From assembly GCA_044868105.1 (NCBI GenBank), contig JBIOWC010000561.1, forward strand, positions 1 through 47,038: a DNA stretch of 47,038 nucleotides, in the 5' to 3' direction. Position numbers and translations under genes: made by a program. This DNA is from Blastocatellia bacterium (GTDB lineage: Bacteria; Acidobacteriota; Blastocatellia; UBA7656). How positions within the stretch are numbered: the first letter of the stretch is position 1; each line of letters starts with the position of its first letter. The notes beneath the pieces are model-generated. The model was not told where the DNA came from and made no database searches. It saw only the letters and a list, made by a program, of their open reading frames with translations. Positions 2,527 through 33,819 of the stretch are shown here, piece after piece.

Positions 2527-5500
2527 CTACTTCAATCGCATGGACGGGTCGCCAAACAGTATCCAGGTGCGTCTAACATCCACATCGCCGGTTGAAGCTT
2601 GGGCTTTCGTCGTGAGTTCGCCGAGCGTCAAATTGGCGTTCTCCGGGTTGAACATCAAGCTGAATAATTGGCGATTCATTGCCGTTTGATCGCCCGGACC
2701 CGTCATCCCTGAAGAAGCCCATACGGCAATCGCGCCGCCCGGTTCGGCTTTGAGCAACGCTTCCGCCAACGGTTCCAAAGCCGCATCAGCGAAATAACCA
2801 TTCAAGCAATTCATCATCACAAAAAATGGTAGCCGACCTTGATTGGTCAAACTGCGGGCTTCGGTTGAAGTCAACAAATTATCTGCCCAAATATCAACCG
2901 AAGCATGACCCGAATAATTAATTAACTTCTGCCCGCGATTGATGGCCTCTATCAGGGCGCGCTTGGCCGCCACCGTGCCCACCTTGCCGCGGTCTATGCG
3001 CTCAACCGTTGAACCGTCTTTAATCAACGCCTGCAGTTGACTGCTTGCGGCTTCAAAGTTGAACCCGTTGAGCACATCGCTTACCAGGAGCACGCTGGTT
3101 GATTTCGGCGTTCGTTCGTAAGCAACAATCCTCGCAACCAAACGCGACGCTTCATCGGCGCCGCGCGCCGGCAGACGCCCGATGGCGAGACCGGCCGCCG
3201 GACTTAAGGCAGTTGATTCGGTGAACCACTCGTCGCTCACGGTTTCCATGGTTGCGGTATCGAGTATTCGAGTCGGCACAAAATCATAATCGCCTCTGCC
3301 GAGATAATTTTTCGGGTCAATACTGGCGTCGCCCAACATCACGACGTAGCGCGGCACTTTTTGCCAGTTCGACTGCGCATAGGCGAAGAAGCTTTTCACG
3401 GCTTGCGGATTCTTGTGACCGAAGCTGAATTCATCGAAGAGGTCTTCGATATCAACAATGACCGTTTGCAAGCCTTGATTTTGTCTGTAGGACTGCAACT
3501 CGCGAGCCGCCGCAAGCAGACTGCTGTGCGTGACGATGAGCAAATCGGCGGCATTACCGGGGGTTCGCCAGCTTGAGGGTTGATTGGCAACCACGCGCGC
3601 CGGTCGTTTCATCTGTGTTGTCGTCACCGCTAAAAATGTTCTGGCGGAATCAAACGGCGAAACCGCGGTTACGGCAAATCCGCCTTTTTGTTGCGAGATG
3701 GTCGCAACAATTTCCTGAACTTCGTTCGGATTGGTCACATCGAATACCTTGATGGCATTGGTGGTGAAGCCCTCAATCGAGACTCGCTGCTTGCCTGTGA
3801 CATTAACTACCAGCGCATCCTGGTCCGCCTGATAAGTGTGCCAATAAGCAAGGCGAATCGCATCAACCAGGCTGATGTCGCTCTCGGCGCCGAGCGCTGT
3901 AAGGGTGATTTGATTTGCGCCCTCTTTGAGTCGCGTTTGCGGCACAAAGAATTTCGCTGAACCTTGCGTTTGCCCGTCGAATTGAACGTCGCCAACCGCC
4001 AGGCCATTGACGGTTACGCTGACCCGATGCGCGCCTCGGGTCACGCCTTGCAAAATCACTTCGACAGCCGCCTGACCGCTTGCCGTCGCGTCCAGATGTT
4101 GCAAGGTCATCGCCTGTTCAACCGGCGCGCGGCTTACCACCGCGCCAAAGAAATTTTCTTTATCGCCATTCCTCAGCGCTGAGAAATAGATGGTGCGGTC
4201 CTGGCGCACCACCGTGTGCAGGAAACTGTTGGGCGTCGGTAACCCGGCGTTGCCTTTCACGGTTTGAATACGCTTACCCGGTTGGGTTCCGGCAATCAGC
4301 CAGTAGGCGCGGCTGTCGGTTGCGGCGCTGTCTATCCCGATGCCGTAAAACTCTATGGTTGACGACGCATCAAGTTTTACGTCGCTCTTGCCGGTTATAT
4401 TCATCGGCACTTCTTGGCCGTCAACAACGAGTTGCAGCAGGCGCGGGTTGACCGCTGGGTCAAGCCCTGCGGCTATTAAATCGGCGTATGAAACGCGGTG
4501 AAGGCCCGCTTGTCTGACATACAACTTCACGGCGGCGCGACCTGCAAGGTCTGCGGGTGAGGCAACTGTCGCATTATCTGCACCAGCCGTTTCGGCGTTT
4601 TCATAAGTGGCTTTCGGTTCGACAGCCAGCGTCGGACTTTCTTGCGCCGCGTCCCTTCCCATCAGCGACAAAAGTTGCGCCTGTTTTTCTCTGAGGCCGG
4701 CGGTTTTCTTATCTTTTGCCTGAGTAATTTGAATCGGTCCGTGCCAGGTGCTCCGGCCGCTTAAATCAATCTCTTCAAGCCAGTATCGGGCGCTCGGATT
4801 TGCCTGAGCATCCCACCAAGCGTAAGAGCGCCCGGCCGTCAGCGCCCTACTTTCGCCGGCCACAAGCGCCGAACCGGCGACGATTTGTGGCGTGAGGCGG
4901 GCGCGCTGACCGGCTTCTTCGCGGTAAACCTGAAAGCCGAGGTTGTCAACTTCTTCGCCGGTTTGCCACTGCAACAAAACTTCATTGCCATAATTCATCG
5001 CCTCAAATTTTGCGAGCCTTGAGGCCGTCGGCGATTGCACGAAGAAGTAAGCCACGGCGGCGTCATGGTCTGAAATGCGTTCGGGTCGGTTGGCGTCCGT
5101 GCGATAGACTTCAGGGAAATCGCCGTTGACCCGCGCATAAGCAAAACGACTGAAGAAATCCATCAAGGGTTGATTTACCAGTTCGTGGTCGAGCGCCTGG
5201 GCGTTGCCGTCAAAGCTGTAGGAGTATTTTTGCGAGGGAATTGGCGAGAGGTCAATCAAGTCAACCAAATTGGGATTGACTAGATCAACGCCGTCGCCCG
5301 GCACCACCGTTTCATTGTCAGGAACCGGCGTTCCTTTGATGACGCCAATCGAATCGCCTAACCCATCGTTAAACTGAAAAGCATTGTAATCGCCGATGGA
5401 GATAATTCTCTCCAGCGGGTCTGCTACCTGGCGCGCCTGAATCAGATTGGCGAGGTATTCAGCCTGGGCTTGACGTTTGGCGCGAATGCGTCGGCCGACC

Positions 5501-7965
5501 GTGCCGGTGCCATCCGGCGTGTCATCATCAACATTGTTGAGTGAGCGCAAGTGATTGACGATGACGGTAACCGGGAAAGGCGTTGGAGCGCCTGAGACCG
5601 TAGCGCGCAAAACCAGTGGCGGTCTGTCGTTCAAGGTTTCCGACGCGCCATTGTTCGGATTGACGTAGGTTGTTGTTTTGCCGAACTGGGTCACGTCAAT
5701 AACCGTCACCCGTGGAGATTTCACGAGGAAGCCGACGTCAATCAACCCAACGTCATTGCCTTCGACAAGAAAAGCTTGATAGTTCGGGTTGGGCTGCGCT
5801 GCGGCAACCGCATCATTGTTGATTTTCGTAGCCAGCGCCTGCAGGGTTTTCAAGTCCTCCATCTCTTCGACGCCGAGGATGTCAGGGGTGCCGAGGACAT
5901 TGCGAATCGCCAAGCTGGCTTTATTCAAACGATTATTGAAAGCCGTCGTGGTTAAAACTGTATCGCCACCCGGATCATCCATATTGTCATAGAAGCGTTC
6001 AAGGTTGAAGGCGCCGACGGTGAATTCGTTGCTTTGAGGAACCGGCACGGGTACAAAGGTTGTAATGCCGGAGACGGAGGGCACAGTCGCGGCTTCCGGG
6101 TAGAGCGTGTAATTCGGGAAGCCTCCCGGATCAAGCACGCCGACCAGATTGGTCACCACCGCCCCGGTCGTCACATCAATCGGGGAAGTCCCCGGTTGCC
6201 CGTCACTGTCCACGCGGAGGTGTTCGGGGTTCGCATCAAAGCGCGGCACCGGGGGAATGGTCACGGTGCTTCCCGTCGGTAGCCCGTTCGGCGCTTCGAT
6301 GCCGGGTTCTCTGAAGGGTCGCGCAACCCCTGTGACAACGCCCCAGAATAGGCCGCTACTCGTAGAGGTTGCGGCGCTCTCTGTCTTAAATCCGTCGGTC
6401 GGCGCAACCACGGTCAGCGAATTTACGCGCACGCGCATGTGTTCGTATTTTTCCAACTGTTCAAGCGGACCCGCTGGATCGGTGTCGGCTGCGGTGATGA
6501 GGCTGGCGGTCGGTACCGGATTGCCGGTTGAGAGCAGGTTGACAGTTGGCGACGCCAGTTCGGTGGAGGTTGCCGAATTGATATTTGCCGATGTGCTGCG
6601 AAATTCAGCAACCGTGCCGGTCACCGACACCAGGTTGCCGATAGCTGCCGCTGCCGGGGGGGCGCTCGAAGTAAAGACTAATAAACCTTCCGAAGTGTTC
6701 GGGTCCGCATCAACGCCGGCATCCGGGGTTTGTATATAAAACCCGTTGCTTCTCAGCCCCGTGACAATGCCCGAAGTGGTTACCGACGCGCCAACCAGAG
6801 GTGAGGCGGAACCGTTGCCTTGAATGTCATGGATTTGGGTGATGGAAATATCATCATTCGTGATGGTGCCAACTCCCTGCCCGTCACTGACACTGGCGCC
6901 TGTGACATTGGTGACATTCACCAAAAAGGTTTCGTTGGGTTCGGATGTCATATCGCCGTTGACTAACACGGTGACCGTTTTTGACATTTGCCCTTCGGGA
7001 ATCGAGTCATTGAGATTGAGGATTTGCTGATAATCATTATTGGCAAGCGTCGCCGAACCGTCGGCCGTGTTAACGGTGTAAGAAACGCCGCCCATCGGAG
7101 CCGCCGCATTCAAGCTCACGATAAAGGTGAAATTCGTCGTCCCGCTGTTACCTTCGGCTTGCGTCACATCGTTGATTGAGAGGCTCAACGGAGCAATACC
7201 GGCCGTGATGTTGAGGTCGTCAATACCGACCCACTCGTCATTTCCGGCAGCGTTTGCGGTAATGATACGCACTTGAACTTCAGGTTGATTATTGGCCGCC
7301 GCCGGTAAGGTTGCGCTCACCGGTGTGACCAGCGTCGCAAGACTGGGGCCGGTGGTCGCATCGGCAACAAAGCCGGCGGGAACATTGGTGAAGTTCCCCG
7401 ACGTCCCGACTCTGAATTGCAAAGCCACCGGTTGTATGGCGTTATCCGCTGTGCCATCGATATCCCGGAGGTTATAAGCGACATTGATGTTGCTCTGCCC
7501 TGTGGTATTCAGATGCATCAGCAGGTAAGGCGCATCGGCGGTTCCCGAACCTTGAAGCGCAACGGTGGGGTTGGCAATGCCATCAAACTCGGCGACCCCG
7601 CCATTGGTAATACTGGTGTTCGATTGATTGGCAATGACATCGAGATCATTGGCTACGGCGCTCACGCCCAGCAAAGTTTGTGGGTCAACACCGGTCGAAG
7701 TCGTGATGTCTTGACCGAGAAAACCTTCGATACCGGGTACACCCGACCAGTTATCATTGGCGGTAATCAAGGTGGTCGTCGTCCAATTTTGCGTGAAGGG
7801 TAAAGTCTGTGGCGAGGTGTCGCCTTGAACCGCAAGCGGCAGCAGGATACCGCTCAGGGATAATAAGGCGATGAGAAGGGCGACAAGAAAATTTCTCGTC
7901 GGTTTATGAATCCTGCTGGTGAATTGAATAATTTTATGAATGCCGAATAGCGATTGCTTTTTCAT
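2527..7965 (-). CDS. Large secreted multidomain protein: beta-sandwich + Calx-beta + OB-fold + ExeM/NucH-like EEP nuclease + Ig-like linker + C25 (gingipain-like) peptidase
   Basis: Signal region; Calx-beta (LSINDVTQAEGNSG...EPNETF...GTITNDD); IHDIQG...SPL OB-fold; EEP motifs FNLERF, GVEEME, NHLRS, GDYN, SDHD; C25 motifs IGRLP, NYSGH, MNCLNG, LFGDP. Confidence 0.88.
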   Translation of the reverse strand: MKKQSLFGIHKIIQFTSRIHKPTRNFLVALLIALLSLSGILLPLAVQGDTSPQTLPFTQNWTTTTLITANDNWSGVPGIEGFLGQDITTSTGVDPQTLLGVSAVANDLDVIANQSNTSITNGGVAEFDGIANPTVALQGSGTADAPYLLMHLNTTGQSNINVAYNLRDIDGTADNAIQPVALQFRVGTSGNFTNVPAGFVADATTGPSLATLVTPVSATLPAAANNQPEVQVRIITANAAGNDEWVGIDDLNITAGIAPLSLSINDVTQAEGNSGTTNFTFIVSLNAAAPMGGVSYTVNTADGSATLANNDYQQILNLNDSIPEGQMSKTVTVLVNGDMTSEPNETFLVNVTNVTGASVSDGQGVGTITNDDISITQIHDIQGNGSASPLVGASVTTSGIVTGLRSNGFYIQTPDAGVDADPNTSEGLLVFTSSAPPAAAAIGNLVSVTGTVAEFRSTSANINSATSTELASPTVNLLSTGNPVPTASLITAADTDPAGPLEQLEKYEHMRVRVNSLTVVAPTDGFKTESAATSTSSGLFWGVVTGVARPFREPGIEAPNGLPTGSTVTIPPVPRFDANPEHLRVDSDGQPGTSPIDVTTGAVVTNLVGVLDPGGFPNYTLYPEAATVPSVSGITTFVPVPVPQSNEFTVGAFNLERFYDNMDDPGGDTVLTTTAFNNRLNKASLAIRNVLGTPDILGVEEMEDLKTLQALATKINNDAVAAAQPNPNYQAFLVEGNDVGLIDVGFLVKSPRVTVIDVTQFGKTTTYVNPNNGASETLNDRPPLVLRATVSGAPTPFPVTVIVNHLRSLNNVDDDTPDGTGTVGRRIRAKRQAQAEYLANLIQARQVADPLERIISIGDYNAFQFNDGLGDSIGVIKGTPVPDNETVVPGDGVDLVNPNLVDLIDLSPIPSQKYSYSFDGNAQALDHELVNQPLMDFFSRFAYARVNGDFPEVYRTDANRPERISDHDAAVAYFFVQSPTASRLAKFEAMNYGNEVLLQWQTGEEVDNLGFQVYREEAGQRARLTPQIVAGSALVAGESRALTAGRSYAWWDAQANPSARYWLEEIDLSGRSTWHGPIQITQAKDKKTAGLREKQAQLLSLMGRDAAQESPTLAVEPKATYENAETAGADNATVASPADLAGRAAVKLYVRQAGLHRVSYADLIAAGLDPAVNPRLLQLVVDGQEVPMNITGKSDVKLDASSTIEFYGIGIDSAATDSRAYWLIAGTQPGKRIQTVKGNAGLPTPNSFLHTVVRQDRTIYFSALRNGDKENFFGAVVSRAPVEQAMTLQHLDATASGQAAVEVILQGVTRGAHRVSVTVNGLAVGDVQFDGQTQGSAKFFVPQTRLKEGANQITLTALGAESDISLVDAIRLAYWHTYQADQDALVVNVTGKQRVSIEGFTTNAIKVFDVTNPNEVQEIVATISQQKGGFAVTAVSPFDSARTFLAVTTTQMKRPARVVANQPSSWRTPGNAADLLIVTHSSLLAAARELQSYRQNQGLQTVIVDIEDLFDEFSFGHKNPQAVKSFFAYAQSNWQKVPRYVVMLGDASIDPKNYLGRGDYDFVPTRILDTATMETVSDEWFTESTALSPAAGLAIGRLPARGADEASRLVARIVAYERTPKSTSVLLVSDVLNGFNFEAASSQLQALIKDGSTVERIDRGKVGTVAAKRALIEAINRGQKLINYSGHASVDIWADNLLTSTEARSLTNQGRLPFFVMMNCLNGYFADAALEPLAEALLKAEPGGAIAVWASSGMTGPGDQTAMNRQLFSLMFNPENANLTLGELTTKAQASTGDVDVRRTWILFGDPSMRLK

Positions 7966-12231: not shown

Positions 12232-13326
12232 TTAGAAGCGGCGTGAGTACCCAACCAGAAGAACGTAGTCGGCAAACGCGGCATCGCCATGCCGATTATC
12301 CCGAATATCGGGTACGCTGCGGGTGCGGTTGCGGCGCAACGCCACCGGCACACTGAACGACCACTGGTCTTTCCCCTGCGAATAGATAAATCCAGGCTCT
12401 AGGGAGATGGCGTAACCGGGTCGTCTAAAGCCATCGCTCTTGCCAATCAAATCGGTTGATGGCACGCCTTCGCCTCTGATGCTCAGGCTCCAGGCGAAAC
12501 GATTAACTTTCGGGAATGGCATAACCGCGCCGGCGCGATAGAGGTATTGATCGGCCACCGACATCACCGCTTCCGACGGGCGGCGACCGGTGAGCACGCC
12601 ATTGGTGTTTCGCGGATTGATGAGATAGACCCCGGAAGCATAGAGCCGTGTGCGCTTGATGGCCTTGTAGGCCTGAAAATCCACCACCATGCCATAGCCC
12701 CCGTCGCCGGGTTGAATGGATTGGTCAACGTTGCGGGTTACCGGACCCTGCGGCGTGTTGACGGTATCGACAACGCCAGCATTGCCGGTCGGCAATTTTA
12801 CGCCAACCCCAATCGAGATATTTTGTCGGGATTCACTGGGCGGACGCAGCAACCACATGCGGCCAACGATGCTTATATCGCCAATGCCTTTCGCCTGGGT
12901 TTCTTGCTCCGGCGTGCGTTCATTGAACCGTCTGGCAAACAGCATGGGGACGCTCACCGAGAGGTTGAATCGGGGCGTGAACTCGTAGGTCGCAGCCACA
13001 TCGAGAACGTGAATGTAGTTGTTGACTTCGGTGCCCTGCTCTTCTCGTTCGTGCTGTTCTTCGGTGCCGACGAAATGGCGATGGGAGTGTTGATAACGAT
13101 AACCTACGGCGAGTTGCCAGCGGCGTGGACTGAACCAGGATTCGCCTGTTGAAGAACCGGCGGGAATGGTGTCACTAACGGTTTGCGGGCCAATCACGGG
13201 CACGCTTTGTCGTGCCGCCACTCAGCCCTGCGCCCAGGCATTATTGCCAGAGAAAGCGAGCCACACAAAGCTGGCCAAGCTGATGAAGAGAAACTGTCTG
13301 ATTTGACGCAAAGATAAGCTAATCAC
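12232..13326 (-). CDS. Putative selenoprotein: outer-membrane beta-barrel/transporter-like protein with Sec at codon 35 (364 aa)
   Basis: SD TAAGGAGGT (13332-13340), GTG start at 13326, 34 sense codons forming a signal peptide (MISLSLRQIRQFLFISLASFVWLAFSGNNAWAQG), in-frame TGA at 13222-13224, then VAARQSV... The body has GIGDISI, GVGVKLPTG and SIQPGDG motifs and ends in YSRRF (terminal Phe of OM barrels). Confidence 0.8.
13190..13224 (-). promoter_or_regulatory. Candidate bacterial SECIS hairpin immediately 3' of the UGA
   Basis: Minus strand reads UGA GUGGC GGCACG-ACAAAG-CGUGCC C GUGAUU: a 6-bp perfect upper stem (13199-13216) with an extendable G-U-rich lower stem. Confidence 0.5.
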
Positions 13327-13539
13327 TTTTTACCTCCTTACTCGTCTAAAAATATTGAGAACTAGTCCGCTTAATAAGCCTTACAACCAGATGCTTGAAT
13401 CGGTAAGGAAATGAGAAATCTGAAAAGTCGGAACCCTAAACAATGGAGAGCAGCATAGTCCAAAGTTCTGATTCTGTTATTAAACTATAGTTGGGGTTTG
13501 CACTATAACTTTTAATATAGAGGATGTCTGAAAAGTGAA

Positions 13540-18815: not shown

Positions 18816-21650
18816 ATGACAGCCGACGAGTTAGCCGCGGCGCTGGTGGCGGCTAACCAGACGACGCGAGTTGAACTGCTCGCCAAGCATCCATCATTAC
18901 TCAATCAAGACCTCGCCTTCGCGCTCAAATCCTTATTTTATGAAACCCGGGTGAGCGACCCCGTACGGGCGCGCCACATTTCCGAGGCCCTCAACGCGCT
19001 GAGCGAATTTACACAAAATCCTCACCTCTCGGCCCTCGCCTGTTGGATAGCCGGAATCGTCGCACTCGAAATCGAAGGGCACATCGAACAGGCACTCACC
19101 CAGCTCGACCAGGCGGCCTCACGTTTTCTGGACTTACAGCAACCGCTTGAGGCGGCGTCAACCTGCGTCAGTAAACTGCGCGCTTTAGCCATGCTGGGTC
19201 GTTACGATGAGGCGCTTGAGTGTGGGCTGCAGGCGCGCGATATTTTAGTCGCGCAGGGCGACAAGGTGGCGGCGGGGAAAATTGAACATAATCTCGGCAA
19301 CATCTATTTTCGCCGCGACCGTTACCGGGAAGCCGAACGGTTTTATCGCGCCGCGCGCGCCCGTTTCGCCGCAGCCGATGACCCGAATCAATTGGTGTTG
19401 ATTGATACCTCGCTGGCCATGACGCTGATTAATCAACATCGTTTTCGTGAAGCCGAAGCGCTTTGTGAGCAGGCGCTCCGGCGCGCCGAAACCACCGGAC
19501 AGGTGATTGCGCAAGCCGCGATTGAATGCGATTTGGGCTGTCTGGCGCTCCTGCAAGGGCATTATAATCGCGCCCTTGATTTGCTGGAAAAATCGCGCCG
19601 GCGTTATGCCCAGCTCGGCCTGACGCACGAATCGGCGATTGCCGATTTGGAACTGGCAAACGCTTATCTTGAACTCAACCTGGCTCCCGAAGCCGCCGCG
19701 CTTTACCACAAAACCATTCCACTTTTTGCCGAACTCGGCATGCAAGCTGAACAAGCGCACGCCCTGGCCGCAAAGGCGCGCGCCCATCTTTTGCTCGGGC
19801 AACTCAAAGAAGCAACGGCAAATCTTTTAGAGGCCCGCAAGCTTTACCGTTTAGAAGGCAATGCGGTTGGCGAAGCGATGATCAATTTTGCCGAAGCGCA
19901 GATTGATTTTGCGCGCGGCGATTTTGTGGCTTGCGAAGCAACGGCGCGCCAGGCTGAAATGCCGCTGATGAAGGTCGGCGCCTGGGAGCGCGCCTTTATG
20001 GCGCGTTGGCTTAGTGGTGAAGCCTTGCGGGCGCAAGCTCGTGACGCCGAAGCCCGCCCGATTTTCGACGCCCTGCTGAGCGACCCGAAAATTCAAGCCT
20101 TACCGCAAATCGCTCAACGCTGTTACACCTCGTTAGGTTTTCTCGACGAAAAACATCATCAATTGCCAGAGGCCGAAGCCGCCTTCAAACGCGCCGTCGA
20201 ACTCGTCGAAGATTTGCGCGCCTTGTTGCCAAGCGACGAATTTCGCACAGCCTTTGTTTCCGACAAACTGACGCCTTACACCAAACTCGTTGCCCTTTGT
20301 CTTCAAGATGAAAGCCGCCTTGCCGAAGCCTTGAGCTATGTCGAGCGGTCGCGGTCGCGCTCGCTTGCCGATATGTTGAGCGGCGCCGTACAACTGAAAA
20401 CCCGACCGCGCGATGCTTTTGAAGGGCGTATGCTCGCTCAGCTTGAAACCTCGCGCGAAGAATTGAATTGGCTTTATCGTCAGCTTAATCGCCCGCCGGA
20501 AGCGGCCGCCGACGAGCACGCAAAAACCCTCGCCGCGCTCTATGAGACAATTCACCAGCGCGAAAATCAACTGCTCGAAATCCTGCGGCAACTGCAACAA
20601 CGCGGCGGCGCGAGTTTGATGCGCGTCGAACCGTTTGAGCTTGCCAACCTGCAAAGCCAATTGGACGCGCAGACCGCGATTATCGAATATTTCAGCATTG
20701 ATGATGAATTGATTGCCTTTCTTATCACGAATCGCGAGATTCACCTGAGGCGCGCGTTAGGCAGTGAGCGCGCCATCTCAGCGATGATTGATGGCCTGCG
20801 ATTTCAAATCGGTTCACTGCGTTATGGCGCCGCGCGTATACAAACCCATTTACCGCAGCTGGCGGCGCGCGCCCGCCATTATCTGGCACAGCTTTACGAC
20901 GCCTTGCTGAAACCCTTTGCCGAAAAATTGTCGGCGCAAAGATTAGTCGTGGTGCCGCATCGGGCTCTACATTATGTGCCGTTTCACGCGCTTTATGATG
21001 GCGCGCGTTATGTGATTGAAGGACACGAAGTCTGTTACGCGCCAAGCGCCGAGGTGCTCAGCCATTGTTTGAATGCGCCGGCGCGAAAGTTTCAAAAAGC
21101 TTTATTGCTGGGTGTTGCCGATGAACAGGCGCCGCAAGTTCTTGATGAAGCGCTCGCCCTTAAACCGCTTTTTCCTGAAGCGCAAGTTTTTCTGAATGAG
21201 GCGGCAACCCTCGATGCGCTGCACACGCACGCCGCCGATGCGGAGGTTTTGCATTTAGCCTGTCACGGGCAATTTCGTTCGGATAATCCCCTGTTTTCCA
21301 GTTTGAAATTAAGCGATGGCTGGCTGACGGCGCGCGACGCTTACCATTTAAATTTGCAATGTGGGCTGGTGACCTTGAGCGCCTGTGAAACGGGGATCAA
21401 TGCCATTGCGCCGGGCGATGAATTGATTGGCCTGGCGCGCGGATTTTTTTCCGCCGGCGCGCCGAGTCTCTTGCTGACCCTGTGGACCGTTGATGACGCA
21501 GCGACTGCCGAACTGATGAAAATTTTCTATCAACATTTGCTTGCTGGTCACCTGCCCGCCTCGGCTTTGCGTCAGGCGCAGTGCGAAATGTTAAAGCGTG
21601 AGCCGCATCCTTTCTTCTGGTCACCTTTTGTTTTACTCGGTCGCTGGTAG
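18816..21650 (+). CDS. TPR-CHAT domain caspase-like protease
   Basis: TPR array, then CHAT motifs VVPHRALHYVPF, LHLACHG (catalytic His), TLSACETG (catalytic Cys), LWTVDD, HPFFWSPF. Confidence 0.95.
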   Translation: MTADELAAALVAANQTTRVELLAKHPSLLNQDLAFALKSLFYETRVSDPVRARHISEALNALSEFTQNPHLSALACWIAGIVALEIEGHIEQALTQLDQAASRFLDLQQPLEAASTCVSKLRALAMLGRYDEALECGLQARDILVAQGDKVAAGKIEHNLGNIYFRRDRYREAERFYRAARARFAAADDPNQLVLIDTSLAMTLINQHRFREAEALCEQALRRAETTGQVIAQAAIECDLGCLALLQGHYNRALDLLEKSRRRYAQLGLTHESAIADLELANAYLELNLAPEAAALYHKTIPLFAELGMQAEQAHALAAKARAHLLLGQLKEATANLLEARKLYRLEGNAVGEAMINFAEAQIDFARGDFVACEATARQAEMPLMKVGAWERAFMARWLSGEALRAQARDAEARPIFDALLSDPKIQALPQIAQRCYTSLGFLDEKHHQLPEAEAAFKRAVELVEDLRALLPSDEFRTAFVSDKLTPYTKLVALCLQDESRLAEALSYVERSRSRSLADMLSGAVQLKTRPRDAFEGRMLAQLETSREELNWLYRQLNRPPEAAADEHAKTLAALYETIHQRENQLLEILRQLQQRGGASLMRVEPFELANLQSQLDAQTAIIEYFSIDDELIAFLITNREIHLRRALGSERAISAMIDGLRFQIGSLRYGAARIQTHLPQLAARARHYLAQLYDALLKPFAEKLSAQRLVVVPHRALHYVPFHALYDGARYVIEGHEVCYAPSAEVLSHCLNAPARKFQKALLLGVADEQAPQVLDEALALKPLFPEAQVFLNEAATLDALHTHAADAEVLHLACHGQFRSDNPLFSSLKLSDGWLTARDAYHLNLQCGLVTLSACETGINAIAPGDELIGLARGFFSAGAPSLLLTLWTVDDAATAELMKIFYQHLLAGHLPASALRQAQCEMLKREPHPFFWSPFVLLGRW

Positions 21651-33505: not shown

Positions 33506-33819
33506 TCCTGAGTAGCTCAATGGTAGAGCATCCGGCTGTAAATGGTTGCAGCTTCCACAGGTGACTGTGGTTGAAAAACTGGGTGAATTCAAGGAACCCT
33601 TCTCTAACGCAAGTTAGAATGGCAACCTTGAGCGAAGCCTGCTGAAGGGTGTTGAAGTAAGCAGGAACGTGCAGAGACTAGGAGTTGAGGAACCCATCCA
33701 ATAAAACTCCCGCGAGCGCCCGGCAACTTTGAAAAAGTTGATGAGATAGTCCGCACCTTTGCGAAAGCATAGGGTAAAGCGTAACCGGAGGGTTGTAGGT
33801 TCGAGCCCTACCTCAGGAG
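33506..33819 (+). tRNA. trnN: tRNA-Asn(GTT), intron-split: exon 1 33506-33539, exon 2 33782-33819
   Basis: The joined 72-nt sequence TCCTGAG TAGCTCAATGGTAGAGCA TCCGG CTGT|TAA CCGGA GGGTT GTAGG TTCGAGC CCTAC CTCAGGA G folds as a cloverleaf. U1-A72/C2-G71/C3-G70 and G73 fit Asn. CCA is not encoded. Confidence 0.93.
33540..33781 (+). ncRNA. Group I self-splicing intron (242 nt, no homing endonuclease ORF)
   Basis: Exon ends in U and intron ends in G. P1 GCUGU/GCAGC has a U-G pair at the splice site. P10 pairs GGUUG with exon 2 UAACC. Core P (GAATTCAAGGAA), Q (AACCTTGAGC), R (GCAGAGACTA) and S (GAGATAGTCC) elements are present. Confidence 0.92.

Follow-up and report, generated by a model that had tools for sequence, protein, structure and literature searches.

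The locus raises the question of whether the TGA that directly precedes an annotated open reading frame is a stop codon or is read as selenocysteine (Sec). In the window, the whole stretch of 47,038 nt analysed here, ORF 12232-13221 (-) is annotated as a protein of 329 amino acids with a GTG start and without a signal peptide, and the TGA lies immediately above it in the same frame. From sequence comparison, it is highly probable that the gene spans 12232-13326 (-) and encodes a secreted outer-membrane (OM) barrel of the FapF/COG4313 (PF13557-like) fold, with the TGA decoded as Sec.

The read-through frame and the TGA column

The gene and its upstream region are laid out as follows.

12232..13326 (-): predicted selenoprotein, full coding sequence; 364 aa plus TAA stop (12234-12232), one open frame with TGA = U, U being residue 35
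13332..13340 (-): Shine-Dalgarno TAAGGAGGT, five A's (5 nt) before the GTG; read from the sequence
13324..13326 (-): GTG start codon, with an in-frame TAA two codons above
13222..13224 (-): in-frame TGA, read as Sec; precursor residue 35, predicted mature residue 3 (Q-G-U); the only in-frame TGA
13502..13530 (-): promoter-like site upstream of the gene, 9/12 consensus matches; from a consensus scan only
13553-13541 (-): terminator-like hairpin of the upstream gene, upstream of the promoter-like site

A preliminary description of this DNA had placed the annotated start at 13221, without a signal peptide and with a TGA directly upstream in frame. It had further seen in the 34 sense codons above the TGA a signal peptide ending in AWA and followed by QG, and had pointed to a GTG at 13326 with the Shine-Dalgarno sequence (13340-13332) 5 nt away. 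All these elements were found as stated, as were HSHRH (residues 80-84), KLPTG (177-181), QPGDG (205-209) and the C-terminal Phe. The layout goes beyond chance: signal peptide, QG, TGA or Cys codon and barrel recur in 88 of 88 loci (86 distinct), and residues 1-364 of the read-through product are covered by homologues. The promoter-like site is weak evidence, since the scan gave three such sites against 1.3 expected by chance.

The TGA at 13224-13222 is very likely a Sec codon. In an alignment of the read-through product with full-length homologues the columns of Q33, G34 and C35 are invariant (49 of 49), and codon 35, whose counterpart the preliminary description had proposed to look up, thus aligns with an invariant Cys; the QGCVA mature N-terminus that it had ascribed to related proteins is real in these homologues. 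Across 88 loci the codon at the site is TGA in 38, TGC in 28 and TGT in 22. Among the 86 distinct related loci, 38 keep the TGA and 48 have TGC or TGT, but the related genomes are not independent and such counts overstate the statistical support. As to close relatives, exactly one TGA lies within the match in four of the eight genomes that gave a match. Known bacterial selenoproteins likewise have an in-frame UGA facing Cys in homologues, and TGA orthologues in Sec users.

It had also been predicted that standard pipelines truncate this gene, and the databases bear this out. TGA-form proteins begin there with the residue right after the site, and of the 120 nearest database clusters 53 begin no more than 12 residues past it, while 48 are full length with QGC. 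About half of the nearest database relatives are therefore cut short at the TGA and labelled hypothetical.

Two simpler accounts of the TGA have to be weighed against these data. The gene could be of the ordinary Cys type, its TGA having arisen by nonsense mutation, as the lesion of a pseudogene or through a mistake in sequencing or assembly. The assembly is indeed fragmented (934 contigs), and none of the contigs of four soil runs crosses 13120-13527, which leaves the TGA region without a second run; the sequencing runs listed for this stretch include no RNA run. Yet a TGA occupies the exact column in 38 loci from different assemblies and phyla with the frame intact on both sides, the hairpin downstream of it covaries and is specific to TGA forms, and TGA forms track the presence of SelA. 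The comparative data thus effectively refute an error or lesion, whose probability we regard as negligible. The other account takes the GTG at 13221 as the true start, so that the upstream 34 codons would be an untranslated leader and the product would have 329 aa and no signal peptide. In its favour, this GTG comes right after the TGA, and a GTG or ATG is found at the same place in many relatives. However, a protein with an OM beta-barrel fold and a C-terminal Phe has to be exported, the upstream frame is a conserved signal peptide with A-x-A-Q-G in 38 of 38 TGA loci, and the corresponding region is plainly protein in the Cys forms. Moreover, a strong Shine-Dalgarno sequence stands before the GTG at 13326 and none before 13221, and a start at the latter position is hardly credible.

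Hairpins downstream of the TGA and the Sec machinery

Two hairpins follow the TGA and share an arm.

13199..13216 (-): hairpin A, that of the preliminary description; GGCACG 13216-13211, 6-nt loop, CGTGCC 13204-13199, perfect here
13185..13205 (-): hairpin B, conserved and SECIS-like; 7-bp arms 13205-13199 and 13191-13185, loop CGUGAUU 13198-13192

The preliminary description had taken the GGCACG/CGTGCC hairpin, 5 nt after the TGA, as the SECIS. This hairpin exists as stated but is not conserved in the family: in the 38 Sec loci its pairing reaches only 65.4% of cells, a level that shuffles match, it has no G in the first two loop positions, and its loop lies only 11 nt after the UGA. We therefore rejected it as the family SECIS; it is lineage-specific, and its 3' arm also serves hairpin B.

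The search for covariation proposed at the same time did reveal a conserved, covarying hairpin downstream of the TGA, at 13205-13185. Across the 38 Sec loci 91.7% of the cells of hairpin B are paired and four of its seven pairs show double (compensatory) changes; its covariation score was reached by none of 500 shuffles, controls slid along the alignment were at most 52.6% paired, and RNAalifold recovers the helix. The pairing is particular to the Sec forms, with a mean of 6.42 of 7 pairs in register against 2.72 of 7 in Cys loci, and at least six of the seven pairs kept in 37 of 38 Sec loci against 0 of 47 Cys loci. According to a Fig. 2 legend in the available text of a 2026 review (PMC13188914), a bacterial SECIS has a loop of 3-9 nt, a stem of 4-16 bp, a G in the first two loop positions, a distance of 16-37 nt from the UGA and an MFE of at most -7.5 kcal/mol. 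Hairpin B lies within these bounds, with a 7-nt loop, a 7-bp stem, a G followed by U at loop position 2, 23 nt from UGA to loop and an energy of -8.2 kcal/mol.

In this sequence, hairpin B carries one U.C mismatch among its seven pairs and hairpin A, at -10.4 kcal/mol, is more stable by 2.2 kcal/mol, so that either may form here. The local fold of 13150-13240 taken by itself is unremarkable (z = 0.61; 145 of 200 shuffles fold equally well or better). Since single-sequence folding is indecisive, the SECIS call rests on the alignment of the 38 TGA loci, which indicates that the functional SECIS is most likely hairpin B and not hairpin A.

Because hairpin B lies within codons, it also leaves a trace in the protein. 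Positions +9 to +12 read P-(V/G)-(I/L/V)-G in 37 of the 38 Sec forms and in none of the 48 Cys forms, and the Pro codon of the loop region has C as its synonymous third base in 38 of 38 loci. With Sec as mature residue 3, the SECIS falls within the codons of the N-terminal tail and thereby fixes PV(I/L)G, a peptide lost once Sec gives way to Cys. The family would thus offer a clean case of RNA structure constraining protein.

The genome encodes most of the machinery that such decoding calls for. SelA (479.8 bits), SelB (331.9 bits against a cut-off of 242.25) and one tRNA-SeC were identified, and SelD is represented only by an N-terminal fragment of 62 positions, with a TGA of its own, at the end of contig C509; of the four genes that were to be searched for, three were accordingly recovered and selD in part. 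Strong SelA matches occur in 35 of the 38 TGA-form genomes as opposed to 14 of the 48 Cys-form genomes, and the three TGA-form genomes in which no SelA match was found are metagenome-assembled and of unknown completeness. Known bacterial selenoproteins are decoded by SelB at a UGA that a bacterial SECIS hairpin follows (PMC13188914, available text); such a hairpin, together with selA, selB and selC, is seen here too. The points on which the Sec reading had been made to depend, namely the residue that homologues have at the site, the retention of the TGA in relatives and the presence of selABC, all came out in favour of Sec. On this reading, the ribosome would start at the GTG at 13326, and at the UGA (13224-13222) SelB with Sec-tRNA(Sec) would be recruited by hairpin B, which begins 16 nt downstream.

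Predicted mature N-terminus and barrel fold

The read-through product can be divided into the following parts.

13231..13326 (-): predicted signal peptide, residues 1-32; basic n-region, hydrophobic core, c-region ending in AWA
13120..13221 (-): N-terminal extension, residues 36-69; P-V-I-G and conserved GESW.SPRRW, presumed plug or tail
12235..13119 (-): beta-barrel domain, residues 70-364; KLPTG, QPGDG, C-terminal Phe
13075..13089 (-): His cluster H-S-H-R-H, residues 80-84, at the end of strand 1

The predicted cleavage site of signal peptidase I lies before Q33. Ala stands five residues before the Sec or Cys in 31 of the 38 Sec forms and 27 of the 48 Cys forms; three residues before it, 38 of 38 and 47 of 48, respectively, have A, G or S. 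Once the protein is exported and cut behind AWA, its mature chain would start with Gln-Gly-Sec. Alternatively, the protein could be a lipoprotein in which signal peptidase II cuts between G and C/U, the residue then being a lipid anchor and not a redox or ligand site. An invariant Cys preceded by the small, invariant G, some 35 residues into the precursor, would suit this. Q at -2 is allowed under the PROSITE lipobox rule, and lipidated OM barrels of the OprM type exist. However, the lipobox consensus [LVI][ASTVI][GAS]C directly follows the hydrophobic core, and inspection of the sequence found no such motif in that place: A, G or S stands at position -3 in place of L, V or I, position -2 is always Q, and a polar c-region of about seven residues with A-x-A, typical of signal peptidase I substrates, separates the core from QG. 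Besides, no rationale is known for spending costly Sec on a thioether anchor, and the redoxin and DUF3179 neighbours discussed below argue for a free thiol or selenol. Lipidation is therefore very unlikely, and we retain cleavage by signal peptidase I.

The suspicion that the protein is an OM barrel, for which structure prediction had been recommended, was corroborated. The AF2 model (mean pLDDT 74.5, pTM 0.74) is a barrel, whose best Foldseek match is FapF (E 1.7e-14, probability 1.00, TM-score by target 0.70); the COG4313 channel 4rl8 comes next (E 1.8e-9, probability 1.00, TM-score by target 0.69). A profile search of PDB sequences also gave FapF (E 3.4e-5). The match to PF13557 is marginal (E 1.2e-4, 22.7 bits against a cut-off of 22), and many homologues have a precomputed PF13557 match. 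Judging from the model, the closest folds are the plugged barrels FapF and COG4313. The N-terminal part is modelled poorly, with pLDDT below 50 at residues 26-40 and 47-56, rising to 85 at 61-70, and residues 26-56 have no confident position.

FapF, the functional-amyloid secretion channel of Pseudomonas (PDB 5o65, 5o67, 5o68), is thus the best match both in structure and in sequence profile. The available text of PMC5557850 describes it as a trimer and as a plugged barrel with PTG motifs, to which KLPTG corresponds in this protein. Sequence identity between the two is only 13-15%; FapF has a long N-terminal coiled coil, whereas only about 35 residues precede strand 1 here, and an N-terminal Cys or Sec is not known in FapF. 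No fap operon neighbours occur within the window, and the periplasmic N-terminal coiled coil is also absent. Pfam and Foldseek further link the protein to the COG4313/PF13557 channels Pput2725 (PDB 4rl8), SphA and TcpY, a family described in the available text of PMC4493636 as 12-stranded barrels with the lumen occluded by an N-terminal segment. The invariant motifs QGC/U, HSHRHFVG, DQSIQPGDG and HGDAAFAD set the present subfamily apart from these channels, and the gene has no aromatic or lipid catabolic neighbours.

Redox neighbours, possible function and family history

In 25 of 86 loci, a TlpA-like redoxin or a DUF3179 gene adjoins the barrel gene. Of the 88 loci, 22 have the redoxin (WATWC.PC motif, PF00578/PF08534) next to the barrel gene, in several gene arrangements, and five, spanning Acidobacteriota and Bacteroidota, have DUF3179 (PF11376) there; two of these five DUF3179 genes have a verified U-x-x-C TGA. 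DUF3179 is a listed selenoprotein family (PMC13188914, available text), and both it and the redoxins would be partners at most of the barrel, not homologues. Both point to thiol/selenol chemistry in the envelope. Neither neighbour occurs in this 47,038-nt window, where the gene is surrounded by a GH57 branching enzyme, peptidases, GGACT and a CHAT protein. Elsewhere in the genome there are 18 TlpA-like paralogues, the best of them 37% identical and none a clear orthologue, and two DUF3179 copies on other contigs, one with a TGA. The neighbour of this TGA-bearing copy looks, by eye from its translation, like a PilT-type ATPase. In Bacteroidota, the neighbours of the barrel gene include a PAP2/vanadium-haloperoxidase-like protein and two families without a Pfam match, with no clear link to the Cys.

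The TlpA-like and DUF3179 neighbours suggest a redox-active N-terminal tip. Since about half of the family, including this protein, lacks a second Cys, there is no conserved intramolecular redox pair. We tentatively propose, as one possibility, that a Sec-tipped plug or tail of about 35 residues, kept reduced by a partner, gates the channel or captures cargo. Sec would sit at the tip of this tail, which would plug a 12-strand-type channel or hang below it, and as the one reactive chalcogen would serve as a nucleophile or a soft ligand. Thiol-disulfide proteins of the periplasm (TlpA-like redoxin, DUF3179) may keep the Sec reduced or exchange with it, and the tip could thereby gate the channel or capture a passing substrate. 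A barrel whose mature N-terminus bears a lone Sec, near periplasmic thiol reductases in many genomes, would offer a handle on redox or capture chemistry of the envelope.

The preliminary description had suggested a different function, a metal- or thiol-capturing N-terminal plug near the His cluster; in its metal version, Sec and the invariant H80, H82 and H84 would form a metal site and the channel would capture or sense a soft metal or metalloid. The cluster H80, S81, H82, R83 and H84 is invariant in 50 of 50 aligned sequences, and its three His alternate on one face of the strand. Sec and Cys are good ligands of soft metals, and many predicted selenoproteins are metal-linked (PMC13188914, available text). 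Nevertheless, the model is not confident at residues 26-56 and no metal-handling genes are found among the conserved neighbours, which makes a metal site unlikely, if worth keeping in mind. It might also be that the single Cys or Sec forms an intermolecular bond, between protomers of a FapF-like trimer or with a partner, and is structural instead of catalytic. That about half of the family, this protein included, has no other Cys is consistent with such a bond, and so is the trimeric state of FapF (PMC5557850, available text). The adjacent reductases suggest, though, that the reduced form matters. Sec is rarely retained for purely structural bonds, and the chance of this explanation is slim.

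An extension of the reduced, Sec-tipped tail proposed above would be a family of covalent-capture or ligand-gated OM channels, in which the selenol or thiol of mature residue 3 binds cargo and hands it to a TlpA-like/DUF3179 relay, with Sec as the ancestral state and the family among the commonest selenoproteins of soil Acidobacteriota. We consider this improbable as a whole; if true, a redox relay would start in the outer membrane. The N-terminus would in that case extend into the barrel or beneath it, in a manner similar to the gating of FadL by its first residues, and the cargo could be a chalcogen, a soft metal or an electrophile.

With regard to its history, Sec is probably the older state, with repeated replacement of Sec by Cys, since all Sec forms, which fall into two deep branches and several phyla, share a SECIS at one place; the branches are those of a quick tree that omits a truncated locus and duplicates (L009, L010 and L030) as well as the first 20 residues past the site. 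The family is absent from the 119 selenoprotein families in Table 1 of the 2026 review (PMC13188914, available text), and an NCBIfam scan of the protein gave no model at E up to 1. Full-text searches gave no paper linking selenocysteine with PF13557, COG4313 or FapF-type barrels, although the supplementary family lists of BSepDB and deep-Sep could name the family. The word Acidobacteriota does not appear in the available text of that review or in the BSepDB main text.

Barrels of the GSU2204-family MtrB/PioB and TonB-dependent receptor types belong to the 22- to 26-strand classes. Predicted OM selenoproteins of both kinds are already listed in the available text of PMC13188914, namely the GSU2204-family MtrB/PioB barrel (NF041027) and the FCYXU-type TonB-dependent receptor (NF049945). 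They are, as here, OM beta-barrels with a predicted Sec, but of other folds and families and with the Sec not at the mature N-terminus, and neither model matches this protein. The preliminary description had cited ExtI as an example of an OM selenoprotein; the available text of PMC5877670 does not describe it as such, the selenoprotein of the ext gene cluster being the cytochrome ExtKL.

The gene most likely belongs to an overlooked family that is widespread in soil bacteria and cut short by gene callers at the TGA. The selenoproteome would thereby gain a FapF/COG4313-type OM channel, and this in a phylum that is abundant in soil and, as far as their available text goes, barely covered by selenoprotein surveys. 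A single annotation rule (signal peptide, QG, TGA and the conserved hairpin) would mend many gene models in Acidobacteriota and Planctomycetota.

Reading frame of the barrel gene and of its relatives

All the features that the preliminary description gave for the barrel gene (frame, TGA, signal peptide, motifs and inverted repeat) are present in the sequence. The first of the following is from the ORF list, the others from the sequence itself:

12232-13221, minus strand: ORF as listed, 329 aa, GTG start
13224-13222, minus strand: in-frame TGA directly above the listed ORF
13326-13324, minus strand: upstream GTG start, with 34 sense codons between it and the TGA
13340-13332, minus strand: TAAGGAGGT, five A's ahead of the GTG at 13326-13324
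13216-13199, minus strand: GGCACG/CGTGCC inverted repeat (hairpin A), starting 5 nt past the TGA
364-residue product: HSHRH (residues 80-84), KLPTG (177-181), QPGDG (205-209), C-terminal Phe

An in-frame TAA lies two codons upstream of the GTG at 13326-13324. Translation with TGA as U gives a product of 364 residues, whose N-terminus has a basic n-region, a hydrophobic core and a polar c-region ending in AWA, followed by Q-G-U. When this product was aligned with 49 full-length relatives, Q33, G34 and C35 were invariant columns, so the TGA pairs with an invariant Cys. In the protein database at least 6778 proteins matched at E <= 0.001 (8000 candidates scored), and two length classes are apparent among the best 120 clusters of these. 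QGC is present in 48 full-length clusters, and another 53 begin at most 12 residues past the site. In the short class the first residue is exactly the one after the site, with starts such as V, M or AARQSVPVIG. Thus, standard pipelines do truncate these genes, as had been anticipated, and among the matches listed the public name of the TGA forms is "hypothetical protein", given to truncated models.

Of 61 related genomes, the Blastocatellia source among them, eight have a match at E <= 1e-40; the match contains a single TGA in four of these and none in the other four. When one genome per species was scanned, at least 521 related stretches were obtained among at least 600 pattern matches, and the best 80 stretches were kept. 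With these included, 88 loci were read in frame (86 distinct, since L010 and L030 duplicate L005 and L009). All 88 encode a signal peptide and QG, and then TGA (38, Sec forms), TGC (28) or TGT (22; together the Cys forms). The homology check proposed for codon 35 therefore finds Cys throughout the full-length homologues and TGA in 38 loci. The barrel gene is very probably a genuine selenoprotein gene.

Counting from the Sec or Cys, position -5 of the signal peptide is mostly Ala in both forms, position -3 is A, G or S in 38/38 Sec and 47/48 Cys forms, and Q is invariant at -2. This A-x-A pattern corresponds to signal peptidase I cleavage before Gln, and the mature protein should thus begin Q-G-U. 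A lipobox at the site was rejected, the pattern being A-x-A with an invariant Q at -2.

The probable SECIS hairpin and the selenocysteine machinery

The mechanism of Sec decoding is textbook knowledge; the support for the barrel family as a selenoprotein family is good, and the family seems not to have been described before. It is absent from the 119 families in Table 1 of the May 2026 review PMC13188914, where the only outer-membrane entries are the GSU2204-type MtrB/PioB barrel and the FCYXU-type TonB-dependent receptor. The barrel protein has no match among the NCBIfam models, and nothing linking Sec to the barrel fold was found in the full texts searched. ExtI had been cited as an example of an outer-membrane selenoprotein, but PMC5877670, where it treats this gene cluster, implicates ExtI as a porin-like protein in selenite and tellurite reduction, and the selenoprotein of the cluster is ExtKL.

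The 72 nt around the TGA could be aligned across the 38 TGA loci with no gaps required, and a conserved hairpin (hairpin B) appears downstream of it:

13205-13199 with 13191-13185, minus strand: hairpin B helix, alignment columns 29-35 with 43-49

In this helix 91.7% of cells are paired and both sides have changed in four of the seven pairs, a covariation score reached by 0/500 shuffles. Sliding the partner columns lowers the pairing to 52.6% or less, and RNAalifold gives the same helix independently. Moreover, in this register the Sec loci keep a mean of 6.42 of the seven pairs (at least six in 37/38) and the Cys loci 2.72 (at least six in 0/47; L083 was too short and was skipped). The loop, CGUGAUU in the window, begins with an invariant C and G, the C being the synonymous third base of a Pro codon in 38/38 loci. 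Compared with the bSECIS constraints as given in the legend to Fig. 2 of PMC13188914, which include a loop of 3-9 nt, a stem of 4-16 bp and a spacing from the UGA of 16-37 nt, hairpin B agrees in all four, with a 7-nt loop, a 7-bp stem, a spacing of 23 nt and a G, with U after it, as the second loop base. The codons in the loop and 3' arm specify P-V-(I/L)-G, found at +9 to +12 in 37/38 Sec forms and 0/48 Cys forms; the uniformity of the Sec forms past the site is thus explained by the RNA element.

Hairpin A, which the preliminary description had put forward as the SECIS, does exist in the window, but it is not conserved: columns 18-23 and 30-35 pair in just 65.4% of cells, a level that shuffles also reach, and its loop starts 11 nt past the UGA with no G at its first two positions. 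It was therefore rejected as the family element. In the window sequence itself, hairpin A is the more stable (-10.4 kcal/mol vs -8.2 kcal/mol for hairpin B), and hairpin B has one U.C mismatch there and in the closest TGA relative. Hairpin B is likely to be the SECIS of the family, with less certainty for the mRNA of the window, where hairpin A is more stable.

The Blastocatellia genome has SelA (479.8 bits), SelB (331.9 bits vs a cut-off of 242.25) and one tRNA-SeC with anticodon TCA. The expected set of selA, selB, selC and selD is thus present except that selD is seen only as its N-terminal part, the first 62 profile positions with an in-frame TGA of their own, right where contig C509 ends (G000:C509:6664-6843, L099); the remainder was not found elsewhere in this genome. 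SelD is probably itself a selenoprotein here, split by the assembly. A strong SelA match occurs in 35/38 TGA-form genomes, the other three being metagenome-assembled and of unknown completeness, and in 14/48 Cys-form genomes. One SelA scan gave some match in 19/44 genomes, of which only 10 were full length, at E <= 1e-109; the nine weak, partial matches are taken to be other PLP enzymes.

Fold, gene neighbourhood and possible function

Pfam assigns PF13557 (Phenol_MetA_deg) just above the cut-off, and in a search of sequences with solved structures the family profile matches FapF (E 3.4e-5). An AlphaFold2 model from a 50-sequence alignment (mean pLDDT 74.5, pTM 0.74) has a confident barrel from residue 70 on, with pLDDT below 50 at residues 26-40 and 47-56. 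The top Foldseek match is FapF (E 1.7e-14, TM-score by target 0.70), followed by the COG4313 channel Pput2725 (4rl8; E 1.8e-9, TM-score 0.69). In both, an N-terminal segment plugs the barrel lumen, as described for FapF in PMC5557850 and for Pput2725 in PMC4493636. The barrel protein is no orthologue of FapF; it lacks a coiled coil, and no fap genes occur in the window, where its neighbours encode a GH57 branching enzyme, several peptidases, a GGACT protein and a CHAT protein.

The barrel protein of the window has no Cys at all. No other Cys lies within 29 residues of the site in 18/38 Sec and 22/48 Cys forms, nor anywhere in the chain in 13/38 and 21/48, respectively. As a second Cys is not conserved, the conserved feature is one lone chalcogen and not a redox pair. 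In the 3-kb flanks of the 88 loci, a TlpA-like redoxin (WATWC.PC motif, PF00578/PF08534) adjoins the barrel gene in 22 (11 Sec, 11 Cys), placed downstream, upstream, convergently or divergently. Adjacency that persists through such rearrangement speaks for a functional link. DUF3179 (PF11376), a predicted U-x-x-C/T selenoprotein in Table 1 of PMC13188914, adjoins the barrel gene in five loci of Acidobacteriota and Bacteroidota, and a TGA in its U-T-L-C motif was verified in two of these (L011 and L049). One or the other neighbour is next door in 25 of the 86 distinct loci; neither is in the window. On other contigs, the Blastocatellia genome has two DUF3179 genes, of which one contains a TGA, and 18 TlpA-like paralogues, two with a TGA, which are probably thioredoxin-fold selenoproteins of known kinds:

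G000:C754:3865-4725 (L106), L011:4071-5378 and L049:4663-5940: DUF3179 with in-frame TGA, U-T-L-C, split in two by ORF callers
G000:C639:6659-7009 and G000:C43:9009-9314: TlpA/redoxin-like paralogues, one in-frame TGA each

The channel would be a plugged one, its N-terminal tail tipped by a reactive Sec that periplasmic thiol-disulfide proteins might keep reduced or exchange with. Such a redox or capture function is put forward only tentatively. According to the preliminary description, Sec may instead form a metal site with H80, H82 and H84.

Distribution of Sec and Cys, and other features of the window

For a quick maximum-likelihood tree, 85 rows were used and the site was left out together with the stretch that the SECIS encodes; the tree needs at least five Sec/Cys changes, at least four of them forced by well-supported branches. 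Most classes of Acidobacteriota include Sec forms, as do Planctomycetota and one Deferrimicrobium bin; only Cys is seen in a clade of 32 Bacteroidota and Verrucomicrobiota rows, and both forms occur within the Blastocatellia source's own family. The tree is unrooted; given the same hairpin at the same place in all Sec forms, Sec is probably the older state, with repeated replacement by Cys.

The barrel genes of L011 (recorded as uncultured Heliomicrobium sp.) and L083 (uncultured Limnohabitans sp.) group with Pyrinomonadaceae and Algoriphagus, respectively, which would fit mis-binning of the contigs or gene transfer; a barrel of the outer membrane is also odd in a Bacillota bin such as that of L011. 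In Bacteroidota loci (L063, L064, L067, L076, L080, L082, L088, L089 and others) the Cys-form barrel lies within a conserved cluster, with a membrane-anchored protein of about 190 aa upstream, a protein of about 310 aa with no Pfam match, and a PAP2/vanadium-haloperoxidase-like lipoprotein of about 520 aa downstream.

The window also holds three features, the two proteins among them not being linked to the barrel finding:

33507-33813, plus strand: group I intron RF00028 (Rfam, 80.5 bits, 33530-33773) and its flanks
2527-7965, minus strand: 1812-aa protein with a C-terminal peptidase C25 (gingipain-like) domain
18816-21650, plus strand: 944-aa TPR-CHAT protein

ARAGORN reported no tRNA in the window; the intron flanks resemble a tRNA gene cut in two within its anticodon loop.
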